Source of the DNA: Candidatus Moraniibacteriota bacterium
GTDB lineage: Bacteria > Patescibacteriota > Minisyncoccia > Moranbacterales > UBA11712
DNA: 64,000 bases
NCBI GenBank assembly: GCA_030679895.1
Contig: JAUXSN010000047.1
Location: forward strand, 65,328 to 129,327
Direction of reading: 5' to 3'
Positions within the stretch are counted from its first letter, which is position 1, and each line of letters opens with the position of its first letter. The notes under the pieces were generated by a model. It made no database searches. It saw only the letters and a list, made by a program, of their open reading frames with translations, and was not told the DNA's origin. This document shows, in pieces, positions 187-60,349 of this stretch. Position numbers and translations under genes: made by a program.

Positions 187-330
187 TTTCAACTGCTTCT
201 GATTGTATTCCCTCAACTTCTCTCTGACTATTTTTTCCATTTCCAAATGTGAAACAGATCCGACATTTTTCAAAATTTCCTTTTCATTCAAAACCAAAAA
301 TCCATCCAGTTTTTCAATCCAATCTTTCAT
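187..330 (-). pseudogene. C-terminal segment of the RhuM-family gene, separated from the upstream ORF by a single in-frame TAG (331-333)
   Basis: Translated by hand: MKDWIEKLDGFLVLNEKEILKNVGSVSHLEMEKIVREKLREYNQKQLK. It follows the RhuM ORF in the same frame. Combined length is about 311 aa, typical of RhuM proteins. Confidence 0.5.
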
Positions 331-1119: not shown

Positions 1120-1189
1120 CGTTTTGTTTTTCTTTTGTCGTTAATAAAAAATAGCACGTCCGAATGGCATACTATCACTATATCACTAT

Positions 1190-1230
1190 CTTGACTCCTG
1201 TCAAGCATTTTCCTAACATTAAATGTTAGG
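1190..1230. repeat. intergenic palindromes: cttgacTCCTgtcaag plus cctaacattAAatgttagg
   Basis: Two perfect short inverted repeats lie directly downstream of the metallophosphoesterase stop. Same family as 1962-2047, 2526-2544, 11895-11911 and 12968-12984. Confidence 0.7.
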
Positions 1231-1251
1231 AACGGTTAGAGAAGATGGAGA

Positions 1252-1938
1252 CTAAAGTTCAAGAAAATAAAAATTAGGATGCCTTCCATCTGAAAAAGCA
1301 TTTGCGATTCGATAAGTGATTCCGTTTTCATCAATCTGATGTTCCTTGTGTTGGTGTCCAGAGATCATCATTTTAACATTCTGATGAAACTCAATAGTTC
1401 TTTTGAAATCATTATAAATAGGGAAAAGACCATATCCGTTTCGATGATCGAATATCGGTTGGTGAGAGGCGATCAGAACATCCTTATTTGTGTTCAGAAC
1501 GTAATTCAACCATCGCAGTTGAGCAGGACAGATTCCACCGGATGATTTTTCCGGACCGCAGTAATTCGTATCAAGGACAACAACTCTCGTATTTCCGACA
1601 TCCTTTGTGAAATAATTCATTTTCATCCCGTCGTGATTCCCATTGACCGCAATGACTTTTATTCTTTTTTTCTTGAAAATATTGAGAACTTTCCTCCTGT
1701 ATGATTTTTTGCTCTCGATAATATCTCCAGTAATAATAACATTTTTAATTCCTTTTACTCTGAATATCCTGATTGTTTTTTTCAGAAGAGACTGATACAT
1801 ATTCGGATAAACAATCCTGCTATCCATATTCACTTTGTCCTTTTCCTTCCCTGCATGAATATCAGAAATCCAACCGACAGTTTCGGCTCTCACTGGGAAA
1901 GCAAGCAGAAAAATGATGATAAATAAGATTTTGTTCAT
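1252..1938 (-). CDS. secreted calcineurin-like metallophosphoesterase
   Basis: N-terminal signal peptide (MNKILFIIIFLLAFPVRA). GDIIESKK and GNHD motifs match the metallophosphatase fold. Confidence 0.75.
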   Translation of the reverse strand: MNKILFIIIFLLAFPVRAETVGWISDIHAGKEKDKVNMDSRIVYPNMYQSLLKKTIRIFRVKGIKNVIITGDIIESKKSYRRKVLNIFKKKRIKVIAVNGNHDGMKMNYFTKDVGNTRVVVLDTNYCGPEKSSGGICPAQLRWLNYVLNTNKDVLIASHQPIFDHRNGYGLFPIYNDFKRTIEFHQNVKMMISGHQHKEHQIDENGITYRIANAFSDGRHPNFYFLEL

Positions 1939-1961
1939 TTGTATACAAATAAGAGGTTTTT

Positions 1962-2047
1962 CCTAAAGTTTAACTTTAGGAATGGTTACTATCTTGACCT
2001 CTGTCAAGCATTTTTCCGCCAATATACCCCAACATTCAATGTTGGGG
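1962..2047. repeat. cluster of three intergenic palindromes (cctaaagttTAAactttagg; cttgacCTCTgtcaag; ccccaacattCAatgttgggg)
   Basis: Perfect inverted repeats read directly from the sequence. Same motifs as at 1190-1230, 2526-2544 and 14604-14622. Confidence 0.75.
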
Positions 2048-2057
2048 TGGGTTATTT

Positions 2058-2501
2058 TTAATTTGTTGGATTAAATGTAATGATAGATGACCGATTTATT
2101 TTGTATTTTTTGAATAATTTATCTTCTAAAAAACTACTTATCTTATATGCTTTATGTATCTTTTCCATTAGATCGTCGCGTAATTTATCTATGTCCTTTT
2201 GAGTAAGACCATCCTTCTTAAAGATATCGTGGGCGAGCTTATTTCTAATATCTCTTATTTCGTTAAACACACAGAACTCTGAAGAGTATATTTTTTTGGA
2301 ACACAGCAAACGCTTATTTGCTAAATCAAATGAACGCTCCTTACTTTCATTCACTAACACGCCTTCAATAATTGATGAATGAATAAAAACATCGCGATAT
2401 TGCTTTCTTAGATATTTATCGAACTGTTGAACTACCCAGTCATGATGACTTAGATTTTTAGACATTTCTTTTTTTATATTCTTTATAAACAAAATAACCA
2501 A
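2058..2501 (-). CDS. hypothetical protein with HEPN-like Rx4H motif (RNKLAHD)
   Basis: RNKLAHDIF fits the R-N-x-x-x-H-x-Y/I motif of HEPN/DUF86 (HepT-like) RNase domains. The likely start is the internal MSKNLS. Confidence 0.45.
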   Translation of the reverse strand: MVILFIKNIKKEMSKNLSHHDWVVQQFDKYLRKQYRDVFIHSSIIEGVLVNESKERSFDLANKRLLCSKKIYSSEFCVFNEIRDIRNKLAHDIFKKDGLTQKDIDKLRDDLMEKIHKAYKISSFLEDKLFKKYKINRSSIITFNPTN

Positions 2502-2522
2502 AAAATACTACTATTCCTAAAG

Positions 2523-2735
2523 TTAAACTTTAGGAAATTTTACATCTGGAATATATCCTTGCTCTGAACAGTAGCTAATAGAATATTTATTTGCTTCTTC
2601 TTGACTGTCGAATTGCTTGTCTAGTGAATTTTTTTGAATTTCAGTTTCAGAACCATTATGTGTGATTTTCTTATAACTGGAAATCCATTTACCATTAGTC
2701 AGTTGATAGGAGTTTGGCTCAAAGAATGTTTGCAT
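2523..2735 (-). CDS. small hypothetical protein (70 aa) immediately upstream of the HEPN-like gene
   Basis: ORF only. Its 3-prime end overlaps the palindrome cctaaagttAAactttagg (2526-2544). Confidence 0.3.
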   Translation of the reverse strand: MQTFFEPNSYQLTNGKWISSYKKITHNGSETEIQKNSLDKQFDSQEEANKYSISYCSEQGYIPDVKFPKV

Positions 2736-2829
2736 GTCGAATAAATTAAAAATAATTCAGCTTACGAATCGAATATTTTTTGTTGAGCTATCCGCAGAGC
2801 GTCGAAAAGTGGAAAGTAATTAAAGATTT

Positions 2830-3102
2830 TTATCCTTTCCTTCTTATATGATCAGAGATTTTACCCAATAATTCCGCAATAAAACCCAAAATTGCGCCTA
2901 CTATTGCGCCTTTTCCGATGAGAAACCAATCAAATTTATTTCCTTTAAACAGATAGAAGATAGCAACTATAATTCCAATGATTATGCCAGCCGTTAAACC
3001 GCCCCAAACCGCATTTCGTTTTCGCCAAAAGACTATCAACAAAACAACTGCTACTACTCCAAAAATTATCCAAATGTTAACATTTGACATATTTTTTTGC
3101 AA
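2830..3102 (-). CDS. small integral membrane protein (about 3 TM segments)
   Basis: Hydrophobic stretches IWIIFGVVAVVLLIVF, GLTAGIIIGIIVAIFYLF and GAIVGAILGFIAELL. Confidence 0.5.
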   Translation of the reverse strand: MQKNMSNVNIWIIFGVVAVVLLIVFWRKRNAVWGGLTAGIIIGIIVAIFYLFKGNKFDWFLIGKGAIVGAILGFIAELLGKISDHIRRKG

Positions 3103-3107
3103 AATTT

Positions 3108-3404
3108 TTATAGTTCATTCCCAATCCTTTTTTGACTGTCTTCGTATTTGCCAACTTTCCCATAAAACTTGACTGTTTTGCCGATACTAGGAACATGGAG
3201 TAAAAATGGACCATCAAGTTCATCTTTACCTTTATCAAGAATAGAAACTCCGTCATCAATTATCCAAGCGTCATCTTTTAATAATTGCTCATAAACAAAA
3301 TTGGGATTTTTCGCGGCTTTGCGCCAAAATGACAAATTCCCATGTTTTATGTAAATAAAATAGAAGATTACAGCTAAAATAATTATCCAAATGATTATGC
3401 TCAT
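3108..3404 (-). CDS. N-terminally membrane-anchored hypothetical protein
   Basis: TM helix MSIIIWIIILAVIFYFIYI followed by a soluble domain. Confidence 0.45.
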   Translation of the reverse strand: MSIIIWIIILAVIFYFIYIKHGNLSFWRKAAKNPNFVYEQLLKDDAWIIDDGVSILDKGKDELDGPFLLHVPSIGKTVKFYGKVGKYEDSQKRIGNEL

Positions 3405-3420
3405 ATTTTTTATTATTACT

Positions 3421-3639
3421 TTATGAAATATTCAACACTCTTTTTATAAATCTTCGCAAACTTCTTAACTTCCAAAATATCAAGTCTATATTCTCCTGAT
3501 TCAACTCTTGAAATATAAGATTGGGGGGGCGCTTAACTTTTTTAGCGACTTCGATTTGCCGAAGTCCGGCTTCCAACCTTGCTTTTCGCAATTTTTCGAT
3601 AAACTTGGCGTATTCCTTTGTTTCTATCGCCTTGCCCAT
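3421..3639 (-). CDS. XRE-family helix-turn-helix transcriptional regulator (short)
   Basis: FIEKLRKARLEAGLRQIEVAKKV is a typical HTH_3 (Cro/C1) motif. Confidence 0.55.
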   Translation of the reverse strand: MGKAIETKEYAKFIEKLRKARLEAGLRQIEVAKKVKRPPNLIFQELNQENIDLIFWKLRSLRRFIKRVLNIS

Positions 3640-3734
3640 ATACTATCAAGAATATATACGAAAAGCAAAAATACTGCTTTAAAAAGCAGTATTTTCGTTT
3701 TGGGCGGTTTGTTCCACCCGCAGAAGTTCAACCT

Positions 3735-5873
3735 CTACGATTTCAGAAACATCCTCGCCACTCTCAACTCTTCGTATGAAAATTCATCACCGAGGATTTC
3801 GCGGACGGGCGACAGGGCTGATCCGCCGGATTTTTGGAAGGCGCGCGCTATTTTTTCCATTTTCTTGGCCGGTGGACGCAAATAGTTGATATTGATTTCT
3901 TCTCCGGCACTGGTCAGCTTTTCGATATGCGATGTTATTGTCCCGGGAGTCATGCCTCTCGCTTTCGCCATTTTTTCAATGGACATTTTTTGCTGAACGA
4001 GTTTTTTGGTTTCCTCGTAGGTTGATCCCGCGCGGATCGCTCGGCGCGCCGTGGCTGGTTTTCCCGCCGGAATATTTTTTTCTTCGAGATTATTTTCCTT
4101 GGCATAGGTTCGGATGACCTCCGTGAATATTTTTCCGTATTGCTTCAGTTTTTCCTCGCCTACTCCGCTTATTTTGGAAAAGCTTTCTTCGCTTTGAGGC
4201 AAATACGATGCCATTTGAGTGAGAGCCAAATCGCCGAAGACGACAAAGGGCGGCACTCCTTTTTCGTCCGCTATCTTTTTGCGCAAAAGCCGCAACTGAT
4301 CAAACAATTCTCGATCATAGTCAACTTCAAACGCAGTTCTTTTTCGAATCGCTTCGGCGCCGGATTCGGGCTTAGACAAAAGGATATTTTCCCTATTTTT
4401 GAGAAATTCCTTTCCTCGTTCGCCCAGTCCGAGAACCGGATACTCATCTCCCATTTTTGCGATCAATTTTTTGGAAACCAATTGGCCGATGATATTTCTC
4501 AATTCAACTTTCGAAAAATCGTCCGCAATACCGAATACCGACAATTTTTGATGGCCGCGTTCCGATATTTTTTTATTCTTCGCTCCCGTGAGCACATCGA
4601 TGATATAGCTTGCGCCAAACCGTTCCCCCGTGCGGACAATCGCCGAAATAATTTTTTGGCTGATTACGGTCGCGTCGAATTCAACTTTTGGCGAAAGGCA
4701 AACATCGCACCCGCCGCATTTTTCCGATTCGTACTCCTCGCCGAAATAGGAAAGCAAATGACGGCGGCGGCACGCTGACAACTCGCAGTATTCAACCATC
4801 TGATTGAGTTTCTTGTATGCGTTGTCCCGTTCGCGCTCCTCCTCGATCTGCCGGATAAAAAATTGCTGCTTGATCGTATCCCCGAAAGAATAGAAAAGAA
4901 CGCACCGGCTTGGAAGTCCGTCGCGTCCGGCCCGTCCCGTTTCTTGATAGTATCCTTCAATTGATTTTGGCAAATTATAGTGGACGACCAAGCGCACATC
5001 CGGCTTGTCGATTCCCATCCCGAAAGCGATCGTCGCCACGATGATTCGCGCTTCATCGCGAATGAATTTTTCTTGATTCTTTTTCCGTTTCCCGCTTTCA
5101 AGACCGGCATGATACGCCAAAGCGGAAAAGCCTTCCTCGCGAAGATCCGCCGCCAAATTTTCCGTGTTCTTTCGGGAAAAACAATAGATGATCACTGATT
5201 CGTTTTTGTGCGCTTGTAATATTCCAATCAGCTGGTCATAGGAATCTTTTTTGGGAAGCACCGCGTAGGAAAGATTCGGACGATTGAAACTGGAAATGAA
5301 AACCTTCGCTTGCCCAAGTGACAGTTGGCGAATTATATCCTCCCGCACTTTTTCCGTGGCGGTGGCCGTGAGCGCCATCACCGGAACACCCGGAAAAATA
5401 TTTCGGAGTATTTTCAGATTTCTATAATCGGGACGGAAATCGTGGCCCCACTCGCTGATACAATGCGCTTCGTCAATGGCGATCAAGCTTATTTTCAACT
5501 CCGACAAAAAATTTTGAAAGCCGGGGTTCGCCAATCTTTCCGGGGCGGCGTAAAGAATTTTCAGCTCTCCCGTTCTCGCTTCCGTTTGTGTCCGGTCGAT
5601 CTCCGCGGGACTCAAAGTGCTGTTAATAAACGCGGCCGGAATACCATTGGCTTTGAGAGCATCAACCTGGTCTTTCATGAGAGCGATAAGCGGCGACACG
5701 ACCAGCGTCATTCCCGGCATCTTTAGCGCGGGAAGTTGATAGCAAAGCGACTTTCCCCCGCCGGTCGGCATAAGAACAAACGCGTCTTTTCCAAGAAGTG
5801 CCTGGCTGATAATTTCCTCCTGCAAAGGACGAAAACGATCAAAACCGAAACGATTTTTGAGAAGATTTAGCAT
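3735..5873 (-). CDS. recQ: ATP-dependent DNA helicase RecQ
   Basis: DEAH-box helicase motifs (LVVSPLIALMKDQ, DEAHCISEWGHDFR), zinc-binding RQC cysteines, a C-terminal HRDC-like region. Length 712 aa. Confidence 0.9.
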   Translation of the reverse strand: MLNLLKNRFGFDRFRPLQEEIISQALLGKDAFVLMPTGGGKSLCYQLPALKMPGMTLVVSPLIALMKDQVDALKANGIPAAFINSTLSPAEIDRTQTEARTGELKILYAAPERLANPGFQNFLSELKISLIAIDEAHCISEWGHDFRPDYRNLKILRNIFPGVPVMALTATATEKVREDIIRQLSLGQAKVFISSFNRPNLSYAVLPKKDSYDQLIGILQAHKNESVIIYCFSRKNTENLAADLREEGFSALAYHAGLESGKRKKNQEKFIRDEARIIVATIAFGMGIDKPDVRLVVHYNLPKSIEGYYQETGRAGRDGLPSRCVLFYSFGDTIKQQFFIRQIEEERERDNAYKKLNQMVEYCELSACRRRHLLSYFGEEYESEKCGGCDVCLSPKVEFDATVISQKIISAIVRTGERFGASYIIDVLTGAKNKKISERGHQKLSVFGIADDFSKVELRNIIGQLVSKKLIAKMGDEYPVLGLGERGKEFLKNRENILLSKPESGAEAIRKRTAFEVDYDRELFDQLRLLRKKIADEKGVPPFVVFGDLALTQMASYLPQSEESFSKISGVGEEKLKQYGKIFTEVIRTYAKENNLEEKNIPAGKPATARRAIRAGSTYEETKKLVQQKMSIEKMAKARGMTPGTITSHIEKLTSAGEEININYLRPPAKKMEKIARAFQKSGGSALSPVREILGDEFSYEELRVARMFLKS

Positions 5874-5999: not shown

Positions 6000-7505
6000 C
6001 TACTCAATCACAATATTTTCTTCCAGCTTATTTTCTTTGTGCACCTTGATACCCAGCGCCGCTACCGCCCCCACAAGAAGAAAAATGGAAGCCACCGCGA
6101 AGACTGTTCCGTAGGCCGCGACTTGGGCTTTGAGGATGACGAGCCCCGCAAACTGTTTCATCACAAAAGGATTTTTGATGTTCACGAAGCTGTTCCGGGC
6201 GACGCTCAAAACATTCGAGTTTGTGGCATTGTTGAGAATAGTCGCGAAGATCGCGATCCCGAAAGCCCCGGCAATATTTCTGACCAAAGCCAAAACCGAG
6301 GAAGCGATGCCTATCTCCGCAGTGGGAACGATTGAAGCGATGATGTTCGTGCGCTGCGCCATTCCAAAACCGATCCCGAAAGCCATGATCGAAAGCGGGA
6401 TAATGATGCTCAAGGGACCGGAACGCGCATCTAAAAAAGAAAAAAGAAAAAGTCCGACCGCGGCGACAAACGTGCTGGCCGCGATGACGTATCGAGGCTG
6501 AATTTTTCCCGTCAGGCTTCCTCCGAGAGGCGCGGCTAAGACTATCATAAAGGCCATGGGCATGAATAAAAAGCCGGTCTGCGTAGCGTCATATCCCAAA
6601 AACATTTGGGCAAAAATGGGAATGAGGAAAACTCCTCCTATCATCCCCATAAATACGATGAAATTGTTGGCTAGCGTGTTCACAAAGGCTCCGATTTTGA
6701 AAAACTTCAAATCAACAATGGGCTCGCTATGATTTTTTTCAATCTGAATAAATATATATCCGAAAATGAGAATGGCCGCGTAAGAAAAAAAGCTATTGAG
6801 AGAAAACCATCCCCATTCCAAGCCTTTGTCGAGAACCAGAACCAGCGCCGAGAGAGCTAAACCCAAAGTGATCGCCCCCCACCAGTCAAATTTCGCTGTC
6901 TTTTTTTCAGAAACGGATTCCTGGATAAAGGCCAAAGCCATAAAAAGGCCGATTATGCCTACTGGCAAATTGACCAAAAAAACGCTGCGCCAGCCAAAAT
7001 TATCAATGAGCGGTCCGCCGATAAGCGGCCCGAAAACGGCCGCCGCCGCGAAAGACGCCGACCAGATACCAAGGGCCTGGGCTCTTTCTTTTCCTTCCCG
7101 GAACGTGACGGCCACAATCGCCATAGCGGTCGGATAATCCGCCGACACCGCGACCGCCTGAACAACCCTAAAGACTATCATCGAGCTGAAATTCCAAGAT
7201 AGGCCCGCCAGGACCGAACCAAAAATAAATATGGAAAAACCTAAGATGTAGATTTTCTTTCTACCGATCGTGTCGCCCAGTTTCCCCCAGATAGGGACAA
7301 AGATAGCATTAGCCAGGATATAGGCGGTGGCAATCCATCCGGCGGATGAAACCGTGATATTGAATTCGCCGATTATTTTCGGCAGAGCCAGATTAACGAT
7401 CGTCTGGTCCAGCCTCCCGAGAAACGTGCCCACGATGACCGTCAGCATGATTAACCAGCGGAAATTGTCAGGATTATCTTTTGCCCTTTTCAGTTTCTTT
7501 AGCAT
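6000..7505 (-). CDS. MFS transporter, DHA2 (EmrB/QacA) family, 14 TM segments
   Basis: 501 aa and highly hydrophobic. DHA2 signature G(x)LaDxxGRKxxyllg. Last gene of a MarR-adaptor-adaptor-MFS operon. Confidence 0.85.
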   Translation of the reverse strand: MLKKLKRAKDNPDNFRWLIMLTVIVGTFLGRLDQTIVNLALPKIIGEFNITVSSAGWIATAYILANAIFVPIWGKLGDTIGRKKIYILGFSIFIFGSVLAGLSWNFSSMIVFRVVQAVAVSADYPTAMAIVAVTFREGKERAQALGIWSASFAAAAVFGPLIGGPLIDNFGWRSVFLVNLPVGIIGLFMALAFIQESVSEKKTAKFDWWGAITLGLALSALVLVLDKGLEWGWFSLNSFFSYAAILIFGYIFIQIEKNHSEPIVDLKFFKIGAFVNTLANNFIVFMGMIGGVFLIPIFAQMFLGYDATQTGFLFMPMAFMIVLAAPLGGSLTGKIQPRYVIAASTFVAAVGLFLFSFLDARSGPLSIIIPLSIMAFGIGFGMAQRTNIIASIVPTAEIGIASSVLALVRNIAGAFGIAIFATILNNATNSNVLSVARNSFVNIKNPFVMKQFAGLVILKAQVAAYGTVFAVASIFLLVGAVAALGIKVHKENKLEENIVIE

Positions 7506-7510
7506 ATTGG

Positions 7511-8161
7511 CTAGTCCTTATAGATCCAAGCTTTGGCCGACATGCCATTTTTAAGTTCCGGATAATCAGAAGCGCTGAAGCGGATTTTTACGTTGAATTC
7601 CTGCTGCTCGCGGGCGCTGGAAATATTAAATACTATGTCGGAGCTTCTGGCCGTGGGGCTGATTTCGTCAACGACCCCCGAATATTCTTTGGATCCAGAG
7701 GCGTCCACCGCGAAAACGGCTTTTTGCCCGACCTGGATATCGCTCAATCCTTTGTTCTCTTCCACCTTCGCGACAACCCGAAGATCTCCGGGATTTATCA
7801 TACTCACAACCGCTTCTCCGGGCGAAAAATTTTTTCCGATATTATTTTTGACGGAAATGACAATCCCTTTGTTTTTTGTTTTCACGATATCATTTCCGAT
7901 TTGGGCGACGGGCTCGTTTGCCTCGACATTGTCGCCGGATTTGACGAACAGCTTTTGCAAAGTTCCCCCGATGCGCGAAGACAGATCCGTTGCCGGAGCA
8001 ACGAGCGATGATTTTTCGACATATATTCTGCTCTTCGATAAGGAAAGATAGCAGAGCGCCACCGCCCCGGCGACCAAAAAAGCCAAAAGGGCGAGGAGCA
8101 TCAATCTATTCCTGCCGGAACTATTTTTGACCGCCAGTTTTTCGTTATTGTTGTTTTCCAT
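7511..8161 (-). CDS. HlyD-family periplasmic adaptor, short form
   Basis: N-terminal TM anchor and a biotin-lipoyl-like beta domain. Adjacent to the MFS pump and a second adaptor. Confidence 0.6.
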   Translation of the reverse strand: MENNNNEKLAVKNSSGRNRLMLLALLAFLVAGAVALCYLSLSKSRIYVEKSSLVAPATDLSSRIGGTLQKLFVKSGDNVEANEPVAQIGNDIVKTKNKGIVISVKNNIGKNFSPGEAVVSMINPGDLRVVAKVEENKGLSDIQVGQKAVFAVDASGSKEYSGVVDEISPTARSSDIVFNISSAREQQEFNVKIRFSASDYPELKNGMSAKAWIYKD

Positions 8162-8179
8162 ATTTAATTTAATAAAGGC

Positions 8180-9250
8180 TTATTTATTCAGTTCAAAAAT
8201 ATTGTCCCCGACTGAAAGACCCGACACTACTTCGACTGTGTAGTCAGCTCCATATATGCCGGTTTGGATTTCTTTCTTTTCTCTTAAGCCGTTTTTTGAT
8301 ATATACACGAACTTCTTTCCTCCCTCCTCGAAAATGGCATCCCGAGGGATAAGCAGAACATCATTTTTCTTCTCGGCCGCGACAGACACGCTGGCGCCAA
8401 CTCCCGAACGCAGATCAGAAACATTTTCCCGAAAATTGAGCGTTACTTTATAATTCGAAACATTGTTGATCAGCTCTTCTGTCGGGTCTATGGAATTTAT
8501 TTCAGCGTCAAAAACGCGCCCCGATCCGTCATCCAAAGAAATTTGAGCGGAGTCGCCGCTATGTATATTCCGAACATCAATTTCAGAGGCAAAAGCTTCA
8601 ACCTTGAACGAATCCCGGCTGGAAAGAGTGATTATGGGAGCATTGGACTGCGCCACTTCCCCTTCAATGACATCTTGCTTTGACACAACACCGTCAAAAG
8701 GAGCAGTGATAATGGTTTTGTCTATTTGCGCCCTGGCATTTTCAACATTGGAAAAAGCGGCCGCGACTTTTTCTTCCTGGGAAACAACTTGCGCTTCACT
8801 AGCCTCGATCTGCTTCCTTTGCGCTTTTTTGTCATCCGAATTGGCCGTAGCGCTTTTCTTCAAAGAATCGAGCTCGGCTTTTTCTTTCTTATAAAGTTCC
8901 TGATATTGGTCAAGATCGGCCTGAGAACTTTTCGCGAGATCCACGGATTGGTTGTATTGCGCCTTGAGATCAGCTGCGTTCGCGTAGGCCAAAACCGTTC
9001 CGGATTTCACGAAATCTCCGGCTTTCTGGGTGAGCTTCGTGATCTTTCCGCCTCTTTCAAATCCCAATTCGGCGTCGTTTTGAGGCGCGATTTTTCCGTC
9101 CAGATCGAGCAAGTGCTCGATATTCCCCCTTTCGACCTGAAAAGTCGAATAATCGGGACGCTTGGACATGTTCTGATAAAGAAAATTGGCCACAATTCCC
9201 CCGATCACTAAAACGGCAATCAGGCTTGCGCTAAAAATATTCCTATTCAT
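8180..9250 (-). CDS. HlyD/EmrA-type efflux periplasmic adaptor subunit
   Basis: TM anchor, long coiled-coil (DLAKSSQADLDQYQELYKKEKAELDSLKK...), and C-terminal beta-barrel domains. Confidence 0.8.
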   Translation of the reverse strand: MNRNIFSASLIAVLVIGGIVANFLYQNMSKRPDYSTFQVERGNIEHLLDLDGKIAPQNDAELGFERGGKITKLTQKAGDFVKSGTVLAYANAADLKAQYNQSVDLAKSSQADLDQYQELYKKEKAELDSLKKSATANSDDKKAQRKQIEASEAQVVSQEEKVAAAFSNVENARAQIDKTIITAPFDGVVSKQDVIEGEVAQSNAPIITLSSRDSFKVEAFASEIDVRNIHSGDSAQISLDDGSGRVFDAEINSIDPTEELINNVSNYKVTLNFRENVSDLRSGVGASVSVAAEKKNDVLLIPRDAIFEEGGKKFVYISKNGLREKKEIQTGIYGADYTVEVVSGLSVGDNIFELNK

Positions 9251-9262
9251 TCCGGTTATGCG

Positions 9263-9691
9263 TTAATCATTAGTCCTTGAAATTTTTTCCAATATCTTGA
9301 TCAAATTCTCCTTTTCGCTGGCGTTGAGCGGAGAAAGAACCTTCTTCATCCGGTCAGCGACCATCGTCATCCCCTGAGTGAATTTTTTTTCTCCGAAACT
9401 CGTAATGTTCATGCGAACAATTCTTCTGTCGTTGCCGTCACGGATTCTTTCCACCAGCTTAGCCTCGACCAGATGATTAATAAGAGAGGTCGCTGAAGGA
9501 GGGGCGACGGACAGATATTCCGCGATATCTTTCATCAGCGGCTTATTTTCTTTGATATAGCGCAGAGTCTCAAGTTTCACCCCCGAAATATTTTCCTGCC
9601 TTTCATTGCGATATTTTTCCTTGATCATGCGGCTTACCGAAAAAATGAGCGAGATCGCCCTGTTGGTTGTTTCTTCCCGGCTTTTTGCCAT
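9263..9691 (-). CDS. MarR-family transcriptional regulator
   Basis: Winged-helix MarR pattern (TSLINHLVEAKLVERIRDGNDRRIVRMNITSFG). First gene of the efflux operon. Confidence 0.85.
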   Translation of the reverse strand: MAKSREETTNRAISLIFSVSRMIKEKYRNERQENISGVKLETLRYIKENKPLMKDIAEYLSVAPPSATSLINHLVEAKLVERIRDGNDRRIVRMNITSFGEKKFTQGMTMVADRMKKVLSPLNASEKENLIKILEKISRTND

Positions 9692-11196: not shown

Positions 11197-11448
11197 TCAA
11201 GGACAACTTTCTTCCCACGTTCGCAGACATTTCTTTTTTTGTTCGCACCAGCTGTACCCGGCCGGGATGAGGCATCCGTGTTCGTCTTTTTGTCCTCCGA
11301 TGGATTCGGGAGCGTTTTCTTTGTTTTCAGCTGACGGAGCCACGTCCACTGAGCTATTTTTGTCCTCATCGCTTCTCAATTTAACTACAACCGCGGCAGC
11401 GATAAGCAGCAGCGCCAAAACCGCGATAATGATAATTATTTTTTTCAT
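11197..11448 (-). CDS. small secreted Cys-containing protein
   Basis: Signal peptide MKKIIIIIAVLALLLIAAAVVV. The mature part carries four Cys (GCLIPAGYSWCEQKKKCLRTWEESC). Confidence 0.5.
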   Translation of the reverse strand: MKKIIIIIAVLALLLIAAAVVVKLRSDEDKNSSVDVAPSAENKENAPESIGGQKDEHGCLIPAGYSWCEQKKKCLRTWEESCP

Positions 11449-15279: not shown

Positions 15280-15981
15280 TTAAATTTTCTTTGATTTTTT
15301 GATCAATTCCATTTTTTCAGATTTCTTCAGCTTTTTGATCCGGGCTTCTTCCCGAGAGGCCGAGGATTGATCTTTGAACTTTCGCGAATATACCAGCCTG
15401 ACCGGCCGGCGGGCCGAAGTATATTTCGAGCCCAGCTTCGAGTCGTTATGCTCGGCAATTCTCCGTCCAAGATCCGTGGTGATCCCGGTGTATAAAGTTT
15501 TGTCAGCGCATTCAAGGATATATAAATAATACAGTTTTTTAATATTTGATTTTGGAGCGGGTTGAGCGCGCATTTTGGAAAAAAATTTTTCAGGATCGAT
15601 GAAATTTTTGAAATTTTTGATCGCCACTTTTCCCCGGCTGATGTCGATATGCAGGTGCGGACCTTTTGTCAGTTTTCCGGTGTTTCCCGTCAGGCCCAAA
15701 ATTGCTCCTTTTTTGTATCTCCCGACTTTCGAAAAACTCTTGAGATGCATGAACCGCAGGATGACTTTCCCATAGCGCGAATCAACGAGTGCGGCATGAA
15801 CCGTATTTCCCCCTTCAGGAAAATTTCCAGCGACAACAATTTCGCAATCGTCCGGCGCATAGACCGCCGTCCCCTCGGGCACGATATAGTCCGCGCCGAG
15901 ATGACGCGCGGAATAGAAAGTCTTTTCGCCGAATCTATATCCCCGCTTGATCCTATTCCAGTTTTTCAAAGGATACCGCAT
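15280..15981 (-). CDS. fusion protein: N-terminal M23 (LytM) peptidase domain plus C-terminal GIY-YIG nuclease domain (YhbQ/UPF0213 type)
   Basis: M23 motifs HLGADY, TGNTG and GPHLHIDI. GIY-YIG motif KKLYYLYILECADKTLYTGITTDLGRRIAEHN...GSKYTSARRPVRLVY. One uninterrupted ORF. Confidence 0.75.
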   Translation of the reverse strand: MRYPLKNWNRIKRGYRFGEKTFYSARHLGADYIVPEGTAVYAPDDCEIVVAGNFPEGGNTVHAALVDSRYGKVILRFMHLKSFSKVGRYKKGAILGLTGNTGKLTKGPHLHIDISRGKVAIKNFKNFIDPEKFFSKMRAQPAPKSNIKKLYYLYILECADKTLYTGITTDLGRRIAEHNDSKLGSKYTSARRPVRLVYSRKFKDQSSASREEARIKKLKKSEKMELIKKSKKI

Positions 15982-51328: not shown

Positions 51329-52018
51329 CTATTGTTTCAGATAAGTTTCGAATTCTTCAGGCGGATCGCTTTTGAAAAAATATTTCTGGCCATCCGGACC
51401 TAAAAATGAGATCGATTCGGCATGCAAAAACATTCTGGGAGTTCCGATATTTTTATACTCTTTGAAGGTGTATTTTTTATCCCCGACGATCGGATGTCCG
51501 ATGGAATGAAGATGCACCCGGATTTGATGCGTCCGGCCGGTTTTGGGAGAAACTTCGAGCAGGGAATAATCGTCCCATTCATCCAAGACTTTATAATAAG
51601 TCAGCGAATATCTTTCTTTTCTCACATTTATTTTCCCCCTCACCAACGCTTGTTTTCGAAAGTCTCTTTTTGATCTTCCCATTTCTCCTTCAACTTTTCC
51701 CTGCTTTTCCTTGAATTTCCCGAAAACCAGCGCTAAATATTTTTTTTCTATTTTTCTGTTCTTGAATAAATCCTTCAGGTACTCAAAAGTTTTTTGATTT
51801 CTTGCCACAAGCAGAACGCCCGAAGTTTCCTTGTCCAGGCGGTGAACTATTCCCGGGCGAATTATTTTATCATCGCCGACATTTTTGATTTCCGGAAATT
51901 CTTCAATCAAAAAATCAACCAAAGTTTTTTCTCTTGCTCCGATGCCTTCATGAACCGAAAGTCCGGCTGGCTTGTCGACGACAATTATATTTTCGTCTTG
52001 ATGAATAATCTTCAGCAT
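51329..52018 (-). CDS. RluA-family pseudouridine synthase
   Basis: HRLDKETSGVLLVAR catalytic Asp motif. Start trimmed to MLKIIHQ because the longer ORF overlaps tRNA-Leu(TAG). Confidence 0.8.
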   Translation of the reverse strand: MLKIIHQDENIIVVDKPAGLSVHEGIGAREKTLVDFLIEEFPEIKNVGDDKIIRPGIVHRLDKETSGVLLVARNQKTFEYLKDLFKNRKIEKKYLALVFGKFKEKQGKVEGEMGRSKRDFRKQALVRGKINVRKERYSLTYYKVLDEWDDYSLLEVSPKTGRTHQIRVHLHSIGHPIVGDKKYTFKEYKNIGTPRMFLHAESISFLGPDGQKYFFKSDPPEEFETYLKQ

Positions 52019-52021
52019 TGA

Positions 52022-52102
52022 TGGGTGAGAGAGGATTCGAACCTCCATGGGTTGCCCCGCTAGCTCCTAAGGCTAGTGCGTATACCATTTCGCCACTCAC
52101 CC
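52022..52102 (-). tRNA. tRNA-Leu(TAG), class II
   Basis: Acceptor GGGTGAG/CTCACCC with A73. Anticodon stem ctagc/gctag with loop CTTAGGA. Long variable arm. T-loop GGTTCGAATCC. Confidence 0.8.
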
Positions 52103-52276: not shown

Positions 52277-52645
52277 TTAAAAATTCGTAGAAGATCCTCC
52301 CAACAGGCTGTTGACGGCAACTATAATCACATATCCCGCCAGCCCCACAATCACCCCGATAATCGACCATTGCATTTGTTTTTTTGCTCCACTCACATCT
52401 TTTTTTTCACCCGTCATGCTTCCTCCCATTAAGTACATAGTGCCGCTCAAAATAAAGCTGATTATCGCCAGAAATCCAAAAACACCCAAAATCCATTTTG
52501 TAATATTTGATATAATATCCTTTAGGGATCCGGAAGCAAGGCCGCTGCTGGTGGGAAGGGTGACTCCATCCGCTCTTCCAAAATGCGACAACGCGATAAA
52601 CGCGATGAACAATAATATAATTGATACCGATCGCTTAAATTTCAT
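52277..52645 (-). CDS. VirB2/TrbC-like pilin-fold membrane protein, paralog 1 (122 aa)
   Basis: Signal peptide, hydrophilic segment, TM1 (WILGVFGFLAIISFILSGTMYL), charged loop (GEKKDVSGAKKQMQWS), TM2 (IIGVIVGLAGYVIIVAVN) and tail LLGGSSTNF. Confidence 0.6.
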   Translation of the reverse strand: MKFKRSVSIILLFIAFIALSHFGRADGVTLPTSSGLASGSLKDIISNITKWILGVFGFLAIISFILSGTMYLMGGSMTGEKKDVSGAKKQMQWSIIGVIVGLAGYVIIVAVNSLLGGSSTNF

Positions 52646-52675
52646 CTTTGATAAAAATTATTTTATTAATTGCGG

Positions 52676-53053
52676 TCAAAATGTCGTGCTCGAACCACCT
52701 AGCATAGTATTAACCGCGTAAATAACCACATACCCGACCAATCCCACGATTACTCCCGTGATCGACCAGTACATCTGCTGTTTCGCCTTCTTTTGCTGGT
52801 CATCATCCCCGGCCGCTGTCAAATACATAATGCCGCTGATCACGAAACCGATAATCCCAAAAAAGCCAAACAATCCCAATATCCAATAAGTGACATACTT
52901 AATAATGTTATAAATTGTTCCGGCAGGCAGACCCATTGATGAATAATCGGAAGTGCTCCATCCGGTGGCTTCGCTCGCCTTGGCAAACAGGCCCAATGCA
53001 AGAAGCCAGAACGCAACCAAGACATATTTTTTTATGACTTTGTCTGTTTTCAT
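52676..53053 (-). CDS. VirB2/TrbC-like pilin-fold membrane protein, paralog 2 (125 aa)
   Basis: Same architecture. Loop GDDDQQKKAKQQMYWSI. Tail MLGGSSTTF. Confidence 0.6.
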   Translation of the reverse strand: MKTDKVIKKYVLVAFWLLALGLFAKASEATGWSTSDYSSMGLPAGTIYNIIKYVTYWILGLFGFFGIIGFVISGIMYLTAAGDDDQQKKAKQQMYWSITGVIVGLVGYVVIYAVNTMLGGSSTTF

Positions 53054-53167
53054 GATAATTTAAAAAGGATTAAACCTGCTATTATTATACATAATAAAAT
53101 CAATTCTGACAAAACGGCTCCCTGCCAAGCGGGGAGCCGCAAAATATTCATACAAGATTCAATGCCC

Positions 53168-53527
53168 TTAGAATGTAGTGTTAGATCCTCCCAGCAAACT
53201 GGTTACCGCTGTGAGCGCCACTAGGCCCACCAAGCCGACAATAATTCCGGTTATCGAATAATACATCGCTTTTTTGGCTTTTTTTTGCGAATCCTCGTCT
53301 CCGGCCGCCACCAAATACATTATTCCGCTGATCACAAAACCGATAACGGCAAAGAAACCCAAAAGGCCCAGCATCCACATCATAACGCTCTTGATGATAT
53401 TAAATATGCTGCCAGACTGCAAATTTGTCCCGCTTGGAGTTGCAAATTGAGCCATAGCCAGATACGGCAGAAGAGACGCCGTTATCAATCCCGCCCGGAC
53501 TAATATTTTTTTCGTTTTTCTTTTCAT
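53168..53527 (-). CDS. VirB2/TrbC-like pilin-fold membrane protein, paralog 3 (119 aa)
   Basis: Same architecture. Loop GDEDSQKKAKKAMYYSI. Tail LLGGSNTTF. Confidence 0.6.
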   Translation of the reverse strand: MKRKTKKILVRAGLITASLLPYLAMAQFATPSGTNLQSGSIFNIIKSVMMWMLGLLGFFAVIGFVISGIMYLVAAGDEDSQKKAKKAMYYSITGIIVGLVGLVALTAVTSLLGGSNTTF

Positions 53528-53573
53528 TCTTTCACCTCCTTTCGGATTAAGAGTATTTTTTTATTTAAAACTT

Positions 53574-54266
53574 TTAGCCGCCGATAAGGCTGCTGATCTG
53601 TTTAGCCAGAGCCAAAGAGCCTATGGCAATCGTGATGCCGATGAGCGAATACTTCACTATGTTCTTTCCGGTTTCGAATTTTTTCTGATCCCCGGTCGCT
53701 CCGAACATCGTTATTCCGCCGATCACCAGACTTATAATAGCAAGGAATCCGACAATTGACAAAAGCAGGTTGAGAACATTCGTCGCGATCTGCTTGAGGG
53801 TCGTACCGCCGGTCGCGCTTGTTCCTGTTCCTCCCAAAACAGATTTTATTTCATTATAGAAAGTCGGCGCCGCTATGACAATAGCCAGCCCGCCCAGAGC
53901 GTAAAGCAGCGTCTTTTTGCCCCGTTCCATCATCTCTTTGCTTCCGCCGGAAATCATATACATCACCCCGCCAATGATGATAAAGATAACGGCGATCGTC
54001 CCGGCGATCCCTCGCAAATAGCTCATTATGCTGCCCAATACTCCTTCGATGGTATCGTAGCTGAGCGGATTTGACAGGGACACGTTGGCGGCACCGGCCA
54101 AATTGGTATCAAGAGTGAAGAAAACCGACACAGACAGAAAAAAGATGACCGAAAGCGAAGAAATTGAGATTAATTTTTTCATTTTGGTTTTTGGGTAAAT
54201 TATTATAAGGCTAGACATTTGAGAGCGTTTGCTAACAGGCGGAATTTTGATGGACCAAAGAAACAA
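53574..54266 (-). CDS. tandem-duplicated pilin-fold membrane protein (two TM-loop-TM units, 230 aa)
   Basis: Two consecutive units (…IIIGGVMYMISGGSKEMMERGKKTLLYALGGLAIV… and …IISLVIGGITMFGATGDQKKFETGKNIVKYSLIGITIA…). Internal LGGTGTSATGG linker. Start ambiguous between M1 (54266) and M29 (54182). Confidence 0.55.
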   Translation of the reverse strand: MFLWSIKIPPVSKRSQMSSLIIIYPKTKMKKLISISSLSVIFFLSVSVFFTLDTNLAGAANVSLSNPLSYDTIEGVLGSIMSYLRGIAGTIAVIFIIIGGVMYMISGGSKEMMERGKKTLLYALGGLAIVIAAPTFYNEIKSVLGGTGTSATGGTTLKQIATNVLNLLLSIVGFLAIISLVIGGITMFGATGDQKKFETGKNIVKYSLIGITIAIGSLALAKQISSLIGG

Positions 54267-55034
54267 CTAGGGCTCCAATTGATCCTGATGCGCATTTAAT
54301 AGCTTTCTCAAGCACTCCTTATCGTTTGAGATAAATATTTGACCATAAAACATTGACCAATCTACCGAAAATGTTTTTCCGGAATCAGATTTTAAGTTTG
54401 CAAAACGGATAGTTGATGAATTTAGGCCGTTCGACATTTCAAACTTGGTTTCGTTAAAATTCGGGGATTGCGAAAAGGATTCGCCCGGAAAAAATAAAGG
54501 GGAAAGATCTTGAAACATTTTGTTTTCCCATTTTTTCACATTTTCTGTCAATGGATCAACTGAATTTACATAGCTTTTCAAATCCTGATCTTTGTTGACT
54601 TCAAAAATCAGTCCCGCTGCTGACACGGAAGGATCTGAAGAACAATTAAAAAGCGCATACTCCAGCTTATCGCTTAGCTGCAGAACCGGCTCGTCTATCT
54701 TCAAACCGCTCGATTGCAAAAAGGTCCGGAAAAGCACGATTTTGCCGGCTGAATCCTTGACTGTGAATTCAGATATTTTTGATTTTTGATTTTTAGCGCT
54801 TTCAATATTGCTCTTTATCTGACGGTTGATGTCTTCAGGCGTAACGGCCTGTTGAGAAATATTATTTGATCCGTTTCCTGTAGCTTGCGGGAGCGTGTTG
54901 TTGATATTTTCATTTGAACTTGGAGGAATACTGGTATTTATCGAGCTCGTATTTTTTGAAAATATAATCTTTAGACTGATCACTATCAGGGGCAAAGAAA
55001 TTACAGCGAGTATAATAATATTTTTTTTCTTCAT
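54267..55034 (-). CDS. secreted Asn/Ser-rich hypothetical protein
   Basis: Signal peptide MKKKNIIILAVISLPLIVISL. Low-complexity N/S-rich region, then a globular part. Embedded in the pilin-like array. Confidence 0.5.
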   Translation of the reverse strand: MKKKNIIILAVISLPLIVISLKIIFSKNTSSINTSIPPSSNENINNTLPQATGNGSNNISQQAVTPEDINRQIKSNIESAKNQKSKISEFTVKDSAGKIVLFRTFLQSSGLKIDEPVLQLSDKLEYALFNCSSDPSVSAAGLIFEVNKDQDLKSYVNSVDPLTENVKKWENKMFQDLSPLFFPGESFSQSPNFNETKFEMSNGLNSSTIRFANLKSDSGKTFSVDWSMFYGQIFISNDKECLRKLLNAHQDQLEP

Positions 55035-55098
55035 ATAAATTAAATTTAATTAATGTCTTTATTATGTTATTACAATCGGCCGGATGAATATCAAGCGG

Positions 55099-55914
55099 TC
55101 AGGTGCCGGGTAACCGCATAGTAAAATTCCCATTATTGCTGGCCCATTGCATATAGTTGTTCGTATTCCAAACCTTTGGGTTTTCGCCGGTATTCCCTAA
55201 GTGATAAATGTTTCCGTCATAATAGAAAGCGGCGTGTCTTCCGCCATGCCCATTACTTGATGTCAGTACTGTGCCGTTAACAAGCTGTGACTGGTCAAAG
55301 GGGATTGAATTCTTCTGATGCTCTTCAGTAGATCTTCCCGGATCCCAACCCATCGAATCGATACAAAGTGATTGGATATATTTAGAGCAATCATATCCAT
55401 TTTGGCCATAAACAACATTGGAATATTTTTGTAGAGAATTGGCAATTTTAGATCCATCAGTCGGCATCGGCGTCCTGTTTCCTCCAGCTCCCGCTCCAGC
55501 GCCAGCGCCAGTTGCGAGGGTTGGCGCTACCGTCTGGGTCGTGTCACACGTGAAACTCGACCAGCTTCCGGCTTGCTTGAAGCCTAAAGCGTTCATAACG
55601 GCGTTGACAATAAGCCAGGAACAAAGCAGCAAAACAAGAGCGATGATGGAAGAGGTAAAGGCTTTTTTAGCCTTTTCAATGAGACCTTTGCTGCCGGCCG
55701 AAACCATATAGAGAACTCCCGCGATTGTTATTCCCAAAAGACAAGCCGCCAAAAGAAGTTTGAGAAGAAAATCAAAAATACCTTTGATGCCGAGAACCAA
55801 ATGGCAGAGAGTGCACTCGTCGGTGCAGGGAACCAGGCCATCCGCCAGCACGGATTTTAACGGTATGATCAGCAATAAGAGGATTATTGATAGGAAAAGT
55901 ATCTTTGTTTTCAT
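55099..55914 (-). CDS. pilin-fold N-terminal membrane domain fused to a C-terminal papain-like (CHAP/NlpC-P60-like) domain via a GAGAGAGAG linker
   Basis: Signal peptide, Cys motif PCTDECTLCHL, TM1-loop(KAKKAF)-TM2 as in the paralogs. C-domain carries Cys (NGYDCSKYIQSLC) and His (SNGHGGRHAAFYYDGNIYH) candidates. Confidence 0.55.
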   Translation of the reverse strand: MKTKILFLSIILLLLIIPLKSVLADGLVPCTDECTLCHLVLGIKGIFDFLLKLLLAACLLGITIAGVLYMVSAGSKGLIEKAKKAFTSSIIALVLLLCSWLIVNAVMNALGFKQAGSWSSFTCDTTQTVAPTLATGAGAGAGAGGNRTPMPTDGSKIANSLQKYSNVVYGQNGYDCSKYIQSLCIDSMGWDPGRSTEEHQKNSIPFDQSQLVNGTVLTSSNGHGGRHAAFYYDGNIYHLGNTGENPKVWNTNNYMQWASNNGNFTMRLPGT

Positions 55915-55930
55915 CTTTTGAATTTTTTGA

Positions 55931-57361
55931 CTATTTTTTGATCAGCAAATTCACGCTGTTTTGCGCTTGTTCGATGGCTTTGTTCGGATCGTCATTTTTG
56001 AGCGCAACATTATCGATCATATCGTCAAAAATCTTTTCAACAGCCAGATTGTCAGGCTGCGGCCAGCTCTTGGCGATAAGATTTCCTTCGGCAAAAGCCG
56101 CCATCAGCACGTCGCTTTTTTGCTTTTCGATGAGATCGCGGCGAGCAACCGGTTTTTTTTGGTTTTCCGCGTATTCTTTAGCCGGATCGTAAGCGGCGCT
56201 TTCCGTGGATGAAACCTGGCTAAAAGCAGGAGGCATAGTCAAATATCTTACAAACTTCCAGGCCTCCGCCGTTCTCTCTTCGTTGGTTGCCTGAACATTT
56301 CCGCTGGCTGCCGAACTTGAATCGCTCTGTATTACTTTATTTTTGGAAACCGCGTAGCCCCAATAATTGGCGAAGTTGATATTGAGTCCTTTTCCGCTCT
56401 TGTCCATATTCTGCGGAAGAGTTGATATTCCCAGATTCAGCTTTGGCGCTTTCGCTTGAATCTTGGGAAGCAGCCAGGAATAATTAAGCGTCATAGCCGT
56501 TTGGCCTTCGATAAAACTGTCCACTGAATTGTGCATCAGCGCGTTCCAGCAGTATTCCTTATTGTCCCGGTTGGAAAATTTTGTGTAATAGGAAAGAGCG
56601 GCTTGGCCGGGCGGCACTTGATTCTTGTTAGCCAAAGATTCTTCGGTAAAATCCGCGAAAGCGGCCGCTTTTCTCTTCTCATCATACATTTGAGTTCCGG
56701 CTTGCATCATAATGGCCGTCAAAATATCCGTGGCCCGGTTGATTTTTCCCTCGCCCGCGCCGGCGTCACTCGAAGCCCCCATGGCCGCACCGGAGATAAG
56801 GATATTTCCGAATGAATCAACTTTTGTAATTTTGGTCACGGCTTCATCAAATTCGGCCCACGTGCGGGGGGGAGACGAAATACCGGCTTGATTTAGAAGA
56901 TCCTTATTGGAAAATAAGGCTAAAGAATCAACCGAGAGGGGCAGGGCATAGACTTTGGAGTCTTTCACAAAATCCTGCGAGACAACGTCGACGAACGTAT
57001 CCTGCGCCTGCTTGGCGTTGACAATCTGATCGGGTGCCGGAAATAATTTATCCTGGTGCTTCGCAAGCCACGAATTGTGAATCAAAAAAACATCGGGTCC
57101 GTTGCCAGCCGCCAAAGCGTCCCGCAGATCGTTTTCATAGGAATCAATCGTGAGTTTTTTATATTGAATGTCTTTTATTGCCGGATTTCTTTTTCTATAC
57201 TCGCCAATCGCTTTTGCCATAGTGTCCGAATCATCAAAAAGTCCCCAGACTTCAAGGCTGACTTGCCGGCTGGAAACAGTTGACCGGCAGCCGCAACCGG
57301 AAAGAAGAATCACCGAAGAAAGCAAAAGGAAAGATAACGCGATTGATATTTTTTTATTCAC
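55931..57361 (-). CDS. extracellular solute-binding lipoprotein (ABC transporter SBP, family 1/MalE-like), orphan
   Basis: Lipobox LLSGC. SBP_bac_1-like fold over 476 aa. No permease or ATPase genes adjacent. Confidence 0.75.
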   Translation of the reverse strand: MNKKISIALSFLLLSSVILLSGCGCRSTVSSRQVSLEVWGLFDDSDTMAKAIGEYRKRNPAIKDIQYKKLTIDSYENDLRDALAAGNGPDVFLIHNSWLAKHQDKLFPAPDQIVNAKQAQDTFVDVVSQDFVKDSKVYALPLSVDSLALFSNKDLLNQAGISSPPRTWAEFDEAVTKITKVDSFGNILISGAAMGASSDAGAGEGKINRATDILTAIMMQAGTQMYDEKRKAAAFADFTEESLANKNQVPPGQAALSYYTKFSNRDNKEYCWNALMHNSVDSFIEGQTAMTLNYSWLLPKIQAKAPKLNLGISTLPQNMDKSGKGLNINFANYWGYAVSKNKVIQSDSSSAASGNVQATNEERTAEAWKFVRYLTMPPAFSQVSSTESAAYDPAKEYAENQKKPVARRDLIEKQKSDVLMAAFAEGNLIAKSWPQPDNLAVEKIFDDMIDNVALKNDDPNKAIEQAQNSVNLLIKK

Positions 57362-57480: not shown

Positions 57481-57518
57481 AATAAAATAAAGAGGCGGTT
57501 CCTAAAAAGAACCGCCTC
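57481..57518 (-). terminator. rho-independent terminator downstream of gyrA
   Basis: gaggcggttc-tttttag-gaaccgcctc hairpin followed by a T run on the minus strand. Confidence 0.75.
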
Positions 57519-59983: not shown

Positions 59984-60349
59984 CTAAGGTAGTTGCGGAA
60001 TTTCGCTATTTTGTTCATTATTCTCCTGTGTCTGATTTTGAACGGCATTTAAATTATCTGCTCCAGCGTCATTCAGCTCCTGCGTGCCTATCTCATTCTG
60101 ATCCGGAAGTTGATTCCACATTTCTTCGATTGATTTTTTGCTATCGCCCATATCGCCTTTCAGGTTGTTCAGCTGATCCACTGCTGAAGGGTTGGCGTCA
60201 ACTTGTGATTCTTTGTTCATTTCAGAAAAAGAAACCAGCCAAATGACCAGTATTATCAAAAAGGACACTGCCGTTGCCGCAACAACAATTCTTTCCCGCT
60301 GGCGGGCGGGCTTGGCTCTTAATTTTTCAATATATTCGTTGATACTCAT
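59984..60349 (-). CDS. membrane-anchored hypothetical protein with a Gln/Asn/Glu-rich tail
   Basis: Single TM segment (IVVAATAVSFLIILVIWLV). Confidence 0.45.
   Translation of the reverse strand: MSINEYIEKLRAKPARQRERIVVAATAVSFLIILVIWLVSFSEMNKESQVDANPSAVDQLNNLKGDMGDSKKSIEEMWNQLPDQNEIGTQELNDAGADNLNAVQNQTQENNEQNSEIPQLP

Follow-up and report, generated by a model that had tools for sequence, protein, structure and literature searches.

A VirB2-like pilin array with a predicted pilin-anchored wall hydrolase in a conserved chromosomal operon of Moranbacteria

Introduction

Small, divergent pilins encoded in tandem are a recurrent element of patescibacterial genomes. The DNA considered here is a 64,000-nucleotide (nt) stretch of a Candidatus Moraniibacteriota genome (assembly GCA_030679895.1, contig JAUXSN010000047.1, positions 65,328 to 129,327), hereafter called the window. 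Seven closely packed minus-strand open reading frames (ORFs) occupy positions 52277-57361 of this window, and five of them, at 52277-55914, encode pilin-domain proteins. The five genes were found where the original prediction, made from the sequence alone, had placed them, all on the minus strand and with one intervening non-pilin gene. The locus is the Moranbacteria version (Patescibacteria, also called the candidate phyla radiation; class Paceibacteria) of the known patescibacterial VirB2-like pilin array and forms part of a conserved chromosomal operon.

Arrays of VirB2-like pilins with 2-11 genes were published for Patescibacteria in 2023-2025 (PMC10633639; PMC12102498; PMC12857230), and the present locus is a further example of this kind rather than a discovery. 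Quinonero-Coronel et al. (2025) searched 3,035 Patescibacteria genomes with the profiles PF04956 and PF18895 and regarded as an array at least two such genes lying in tandem or with one non-pilin gene between them (PMC12102498), which is the layout found here.

Family assignment and topology of the five pilins

All five proteins exceeded the Pfam gathering threshold of PF18895 (T4SS_pilin, TrbC/VirB2 clan; 26.6 bits). The highest score, 70.1 bits in two stretches, was obtained for a double pilin (53574..54182, minus strand), followed by the small pilins s1 (53168..53527; 119 aa) and s2 (52676..53053; 125 aa) with 41.8 and 37.3 bits, a fusion of a pilin hairpin with an NlpC/P60 domain (55099..55914) with 34.9 bits, and the small pilin s3 (52277..52645; 122 aa) with 31.2 bits, all likewise on the minus strand. 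The double pilin also surpassed PF04956 (TrbC/VirB2; cut-off 27.9 bits) with 52.1 bits. The proposed VirB2/TrbC kinship is thus borne out by curated profiles, which assign every member to a pilin family of type IV secretion systems (T4SSs). With the NCBIfam model for the Mbov_0395 pilin-like conjugal transfer protein (NF045849), s1, s2, and the double pilin reached 36.5-39.8 bits, just below the cut-off of 40, and s3 and the fusion scored lower.

A hydropathy scan indicated a signal peptide and two transmembrane (TM) segments per unit, and a signal peptide with four TM segments for the double protein. Alignment of the window pilins displayed a common W-L-G-x-x-G-F helix, a Lys-rich loop (G-D/S-x-x-x-K-K-A-K-K), and a second helix, which agrees with the helix-loop-helix architecture behind a signal peptide that had been described for the set. 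The only hairpin modelled with AlphaFold2, that of the fusion protein, folded as the anticipated pair of helices (H36-71/H76-109) with a predicted local distance difference test of ~80-87. The structural matches of this hairpin were generic helical hairpins and carry no evidential weight.

Relatives, synteny, and age of the paralogs

Homologs of s1 numbered 131, all with PF18895 and many 60-77% identical, and came from metagenome bins of Candidatus Moranbacteria/Parcubacteria; some of them were named "pilin" by NCBI. A one-genome-per-species scan with a small-pilin profile yielded 79 related loci, which together with L001 and L002 made 81, and the ORFs on them were mapped with custom hidden Markov models (HMMs). 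Every one of the 81 loci carried pilin-domain ORFs on the same strand, 2-9 in number with a median of 5. Nearly all of the 79 scanned loci were labelled Moranbacteria or Moraniibacteriota. Many array-bearing metagenome-assembled genomes (MAGs; L006, L016, L019, L023, and others, as well as L008) were titled "uncultured Bdellovibrionales", "Candidatus Saccharibacteria", or "Bathyarchaeia archaeon", titles that probably reflect mislabelled taxonomy or bin contamination.

On three long contigs the gene order was that of the window, namely GyrA, a solute-binding protein (SBP), the pilin fusion, an unassigned protein of ~250 aa, the double pilin, and two or three small pilins, with RluD, L19, and further on ClpP, trigger factor, and NusA downstream. 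The window itself is an ordinary stretch of chromosome encoding RecQ, an MFS transporter, RNase Y, iPGM, IF2, the CCA-adding enzyme, and NusA, together with trigger factor, ClpP, L19, RluD, GyrA, and 13 tRNAs. The custom pilin HMM detected no further pilin genes in its 64 kb.

Within the window, the three small pilins were 48-59% identical to one another over the full length and 52-67% over the mature part, and only 20-36% identical to the units of the double pilin and the fusion. Each small pilin was closer to an ortholog in another genome than to its neighbours: s1 shared 71% identity with its closest ortholog (L001) as against 48-59% with the window paralogs, s2 shared 65% with the s2 ortholog of L001, and s3, the most divergent small paralog, shared 60% with the s2 ortholog of L002 as against 48-53% with the window paralogs. 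Because of this pattern, the paralog classes are old and maintained, which in turn favours distinct structural roles over rapid variation.

Small pilins, their tail, and the double pilin

In 120 small-class homologs, the signal-peptide site A-x-A-Q and both helices were strongly conserved, and the proteins ended in the consensus (L/M)-L-G-(A/G)-(Q/S)-x-(x)-(Q/T)-F-COOH, the last residue being Phe in 107 and Tyr in 3. The tails in the window read LLGGSNTTF (s1), MLGGSSTTF (s2), and LLGGSSTNF (s3). An almost invariant tail LLGGS(S/N)T(T/N)F had been attributed to the whole array; it holds for the three small paralogs and not for the other two proteins, in which the equivalents are VLGGTGTS at the internal junction of the double protein, with ...LIGG at its C-terminus, and ALGFKQAGSWSSF in the fusion, where the chain then continues. 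Across homologs the Lys-rich loop was retained, and conservation of the C-terminal tail was limited to the small class. The double pilin stops at ...LIGG (53574-53582), exactly where the small pilins run five residues further (S-x-T-x-F), an end point that would agree with a trimming of the small-class C-termini. The operon yielded no gene for a TraF-like peptidase or a signal peptidase.

The double pilin consists of a signal peptide and two tandem hairpin units and was present in 57 of the 81 related loci. The two pilin units ascribed to it were confirmed, and its length of 230 aa was not, for that ORF begins at a TTG codon (54266) to which it had been extended mechanically. Translation probably starts at the ATG at 54182 and would then yield a 202-aa product beginning with MKKLIS.

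The s1 gene is preceded by an AGGAGG ribosome-binding site and followed by a terminator-like, GC-rich hairpin with a UUUU run (53111..53138, minus strand; RNA folding energy -20.6 kcal/mol, z -3.8), which none of 200 shuffled sequences matched in stability. Directly after it and ahead of s2, a consensus scan placed a promoter-like site on the same strand (TTGTCA-17-TATAAT at 53084..53112, 11 of 12 matches; a pattern match only). The hairpin with its U-run and the adjoining promoter-like site suggest two transcription units and a high expression of s1. Considering its strong ribosome-binding site, the hairpin at its 3' end, and homologs elsewhere that are up to 77% identical, s1 is likely the major subunit.

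A pilin hairpin fused to a predicted peptidoglycan hydrolase

The fusion protein comprises, in order, a signal peptide, a Cys-rich GLVPC..CTLCH motif, the two-helix hairpin (residues 36-109), a Gly/Ala linker, and a C-terminal domain (~150-271) predicted to be a peptidoglycan endopeptidase with Cys176/His227. The enzymatic domain reported for one member of the array was identified as an NlpC/P60-type domain with the papain-like alpha+beta fold and catalytic Cys-His pair of that family. PF00877 (NlpC/P60) scored 20.9 bits on the window protein, below the cut-off of 23; several fusion homologs carried a precomputed match, and the L009 ortholog reached 29.9 bits. The homologs shared the Cys-rich GLVPC...CTLCH segment before helix 1 and a conserved F-T-C-D after helix 2, and the four cysteines C30, C34, C37, and C123 were invariant and all predicted to lie outside the membrane.

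The catalytic partner of the hairpin differed between genomes. A hairpin with NlpC/P60 occurred in the window, L003, and L009, as well as in L005 by BLAST similarity to the window domain, and a hairpin with an SLT lytic transglycosylase domain occurred in L016, L046, and L081. The L046 protein (7023-9512) is a single chain of 829 aa that combines a subtilase (Peptidase_S8), the pilin hairpin, and SLT. In two positional orthologs of the fusion (L001:7374-8360 and L002:7514-8377) a Cys-rich C-terminal domain replaced NlpC/P60. This domain had no Pfam match, and its SCHYGG...AAD...HxH motifs are by eye reminiscent of LAS/M15 zinc peptidases.

The fusion is most readily interpreted as an enzyme of the VirB1 type that opens the cell wall and is held in the membrane by a pilin module. 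Most VirB2-carrying genomes lack VirB1 (PMC12102498), a remark that makes pilin-anchored hydrolases relevant to this literature.

Proposed mechanism and alternatives

The array most plausibly supplies Sec-exported hairpin pilins that remain in the membrane until a monoderm-type T4SS, with its genes elsewhere in the genome, assembles them, while the fusion enzyme clears peptidoglycan locally, and this reading is held with reasonable rather than high confidence. After export by the Sec pathway, each pilin unit would lie in the membrane as a two-helix hairpin whose ends both face outward and whose Lys-rich loop faces the cytoplasm. The structural subunits would be the covalent double unit and the three small paralogs, which the distal T4SS, with VirB4/VirB6-like components, may pull from the membrane and polymerise into a pilus or conduit for contact with the host cell. 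The hairpin of the fusion would meanwhile act as a membrane anchor for the NlpC/P60 endopeptidase, whose local opening of the wall would correspond to the role of VirB1.

A distal T4SS accords with the distribution of VirB4. Among the 15 Moranbacteria assemblies considered in Table S1 of PMC12102498, 13 are listed with VirB4, including GW2011_GWE2_35_2-, which carries this array (L017). Earlier annotation had left two options, a pilin module of a T4SS encoded elsewhere and a stand-alone surface filament; given these VirB4 entries the former fits better, and the latter gained no positive support. Pilins were near virB4 in 1,135 of 1,948 assemblies, and ~40% of the pilin-bearing patescibacterial assemblies also had pilins away from virB4 (PMC12102498).

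Several observations weigh against this mechanism. No VirB4, VirB6, or VirD4 was found by Pfam among ~50 ORFs of the 64-kb window, and hydropathy revealed no multi-TM VirB6-like protein among its family-less ORFs, in line with the absence noted originally; nor was any T4SS ATPase, coupling protein, or relaxase found in the window. Within 10 kb on either side of the related arrays, the recurrent large neighbours were IF2, a TPR protein, UvrD, iPGM, H+-PPase, DHH, and PMT_2, and no VirB4-like ATPase was among them. Three further recurrent families of ~490-700 aa (L065:6027-8075, L059:3385-4854, and L075:10317-11855) were without a Pfam match and showed nothing indicative of an ATPase; they adjoin arrays in more distant Moranbacteria, where the 490-aa family occupies the place of the SBP. 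Genetic linkage to VirB4/VirB3/VirB6-type machinery, as expected of a T4SS pilin, was therefore seen neither in the window nor within ±10 kb of the related loci. When the PDB was searched by sequence and by profile, using s1, the double pilin, and an alignment profile of 32 sequences, no pilin matched significantly; the best entry was 8dft ("Pilin protein") at an E value of 0.64. Moreover, to our knowledge, a pilus made of these proteins has never been observed in any patescibacterium.

The alternative that best withstands the evidence, though it is unlikely, is that these proteins reside in the membrane without polymerising, as small integral subunits or anchors within an envelope complex, the hairpin serving only to hold, for instance, wall hydrolases. 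The hairpin clearly acts as an anchor, since different genomes join it to NlpC/P60, SLT, subtilase, or Ig-like domains; the covalent form with two units and four TM segments is kept in the 57 loci mentioned above, the searches gave no structural match peculiar to pilus subunits, and Gram-positive T4SSs are generally without pili (PMC12102498). However, the profile matches point to pilin families, the three small proteins match mature VirB2-type pilins in size and topology, and the high conservation of both helices fits tight subunit packing. In addition, the essential pilin series of Southlakia is interpreted as pilins by the field (PMC10633639; PMC12857230).

An improbable explanation is a T4SS-independent surface filament or attachment/uptake organelle built from the operon's own products, in which the SBP captures a host-derived sugar. 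It draws on the failure to find VirB4-like genes in the ±10 kb around the related arrays, on the tight linkage of the array to the SBP lipoprotein (41 of 70 loci) and a wall hydrolase, and on the array-bearing MAG GW2011_GWF2_35_54 (L055), whose entry in Table S1 of PMC12102498 is without VirB4. On the other hand, the operon encodes no ATPase and no polytopic channel protein, most of the Moranbacteria assemblies considered in that table have VirB4, and the VirB4-negative cases are incomplete MAGs. We know of no VirB2-family pilin that assembles without a VirB4-powered machine, which also counts against a stand-alone filament. A related and equally doubtful idea is a self-contained core-genome surface organelle genetically uncoupled from virB4, in which the SBP, the pilin-anchored wall enzyme, and non-redundant pilins, all products of a single operon, would serve host attachment or sugar capture independently of a T4SS or in loose dependence on one.

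Finally, it is most improbable that the paralogs can replace one another and serve to vary the surface or to switch host range, a role proposed for the Bartonella/Anaplasma VirB2 arrays. The copies are divergent and in tandem, and the idea has been suggested for Patescibacteria (PMC12102498), but it is contradicted by orthology across genomes, the small paralogs being closer to orthologs elsewhere (60-71%) than to their window neighbours (48-59%), and the fusion, double, and small classes are conserved in many of the 81 loci, which indicates old, non-redundant roles.

Other operon members and features of the window

The operon's first gene (55931..57361, minus strand) encodes a solute-binding lipoprotein of the sugar type (SBP_bac_8; PF13416 71.2 bits against a cut-off of 27; lipobox LSGC) and ends 16 nt before the fusion gene. 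In 41 of the 70 related loci with enough upstream sequence, fewer than 400 nt separated the end of an SBP gene from the first pilin gene downstream of it. It had been described as an orphan; the lipoprotein nature stood, as did the orphan status in that Pfam found no ABC permease or ATPase in the window, and its recurrent linkage speaks against a chance neighbour. Upstream, the operon is bounded by a strong terminator-like hairpin of 12 pairs 3' of gyrA (57492..57518, minus strand; consensus scan).

The intervening gene (54267..55034, minus strand) encodes a 255-aa protein in which a disordered, N/S-rich linker joins an N-terminal TM helix to a C-terminal alpha/beta domain that has two conserved, paired cysteines (C131 and C241). 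It was rightly placed inside the array and called N/S-rich, and it appears membrane-anchored rather than freely secreted, with a predicted helix at residues 4-27 and no obvious cleavage site. No Pfam or NCBIfam family was found for it, and its own family is narrow, with 112 representatives at 50% identity among 1.84 billion proteins and an occurrence, among the 81 related loci, limited to the 16 nearest the window. Positional orthologs, 22-24% identical, retained the two cysteines and several aromatic residues. The protein was weighed against the layout of VirB8/PrgL/TraM-like proteins, that is, an N-terminal TM helix followed by an NTF2-like extracytoplasmic domain. A second match of its family HMM in the window (11197-11448; E 4e-4) was rejected as spurious, as it comprised a TM segment and low-complexity sequence.

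Some further features lie around the operon. Directly downstream of the array, tRNA-Leu(tag) (52022-52102) shares 27 nt with the start of the RluD-like ORF (51329-52048, minus strand) as mechanically called, and because of this overlap the true start of the RluD-like gene is probably an internal Met. Upstream, a 121-aa single-TM protein (59984-60349, minus strand) gave a sub-threshold PilO match (20.3 against 22 bits); its gene is flanked by a metallo-beta-lactamase-fold gene and gyrA, and about a dozen related loci preserved this trio upstream of the pilin operon. At 15280-15981 (minus strand), one ORF unusually pairs a Peptidase_M23 domain (residues 26-121) with a GIY-YIG nuclease domain (residues 151-223). 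Positions 1-4000 have a GC content of 0.34-0.37, compared with ~0.42-0.49 elsewhere, and contain a RhuM-family gene (331-1119); this low-GC stretch may be an acquired island.

Comparison with known systems

The array resembles other patescibacterial arrays, including that of Candidatus Southlakia epibionticum, in its tandem, divergent PF18895/PF04956 genes, the possible interruption by a non-pilin gene, the monoderm ultrasmall host, and the absence of a relaxase or coupling protein nearby. In Southlakia strain ML1, the pilin series lies within the T4SS cluster SEML1_0006-0019 and is essential (Wang et al. 2023, PMC10633639), whereas in the window and the related Moranbacteria loci examined, the 10 kb around the array yielded no gene resembling VirB4. 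Patescibacterial systems were described in a 2025 review as unique among monoderms in their potential for conjugative pili (PMC12857230). The Moranbacteria array differs from the published ones in that an SBP lipoprotein and a pilin::peptidoglycan-hydrolase fusion stand at its head, and in its lineage, Paceibacteria/Moranbacteria, the published arrays being most abundant in Microgenomatia and Saccharimonadia (PMC12102498). The identity of s1 and s2 (59-67%) also exceeds the within-array maximum of 54% in that study. A literature search on Moranbacteria pilins returned none, and the heading of the operon by an SBP, the pilin-anchored interchangeable hydrolases, and the orthologous paralog classes were not found stated in PMC10633639, PMC12102498, or PMC12857230.

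With Agrobacterium VirB2 and RP4 TrbC, the window pilins share a signal peptide, a two-helix hairpin, a short basic loop, and a mature length of ~70-100 residues, and the double protein exceeds the PF04956 threshold. VirB2 and TrbC belong to diderm hosts, are encoded by single genes beside virB3/virB4, and are cyclised head to tail, TrbC by TraF. In contrast, no TraF-like peptidase was seen here, and the small class has a conserved ...LG(A/G)xxxxF-COOH tail. The Mycoplasma proteins Mbov_0395 and MMCAP2_0565 (NF045849) are similarly small, two-helix, and pilin-like and come from single-membrane organisms; they occur as one copy on a mobile integrative conjugative element beside conjugation genes, whereas the present genes are core chromosomal, syntenic, and multi-copy.

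Unlike the VirB1 analogues of Gram-positive systems (PrgK, TraG of pIP501, CwlT, and Tn916-like Orf14/Orf17), the fusion is anchored by a pilin-family hairpin with a Cys-rich motif, and its catalytic domain swaps between genomes (NlpC/P60, SLT, and others) while the anchor and the gene position remain constant. The VirB2 clusters of Bartonella and Anaplasma phagocytophilum likewise arose through tandem amplification of virB2-like genes. Their paralogs are thought to serve antigenic variation in animal pathogens, whereas those described here are ancient and orthologous across genomes.

Significance

Patescibacteria account for a large share of bacterial diversity and are host-attached, and a T4SS with unusual pilins is essential in the sole species tested. 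The Moranbacteria array adds nothing categorically new to this picture; it is a clean and well-conserved example with features that could guide experiments, namely the old pilin classes, the hairpin-anchored hydrolase, and the conserved SBP lipoprotein heading the operon. The old and distinct small, covalent double, and hydrolase-anchoring classes suggest major and minor roles in the structure rather than variation, and the pilin-hairpin-anchored hydrolase with its genome-swapped catalytic domain may be the "missing VirB1" of the literature.

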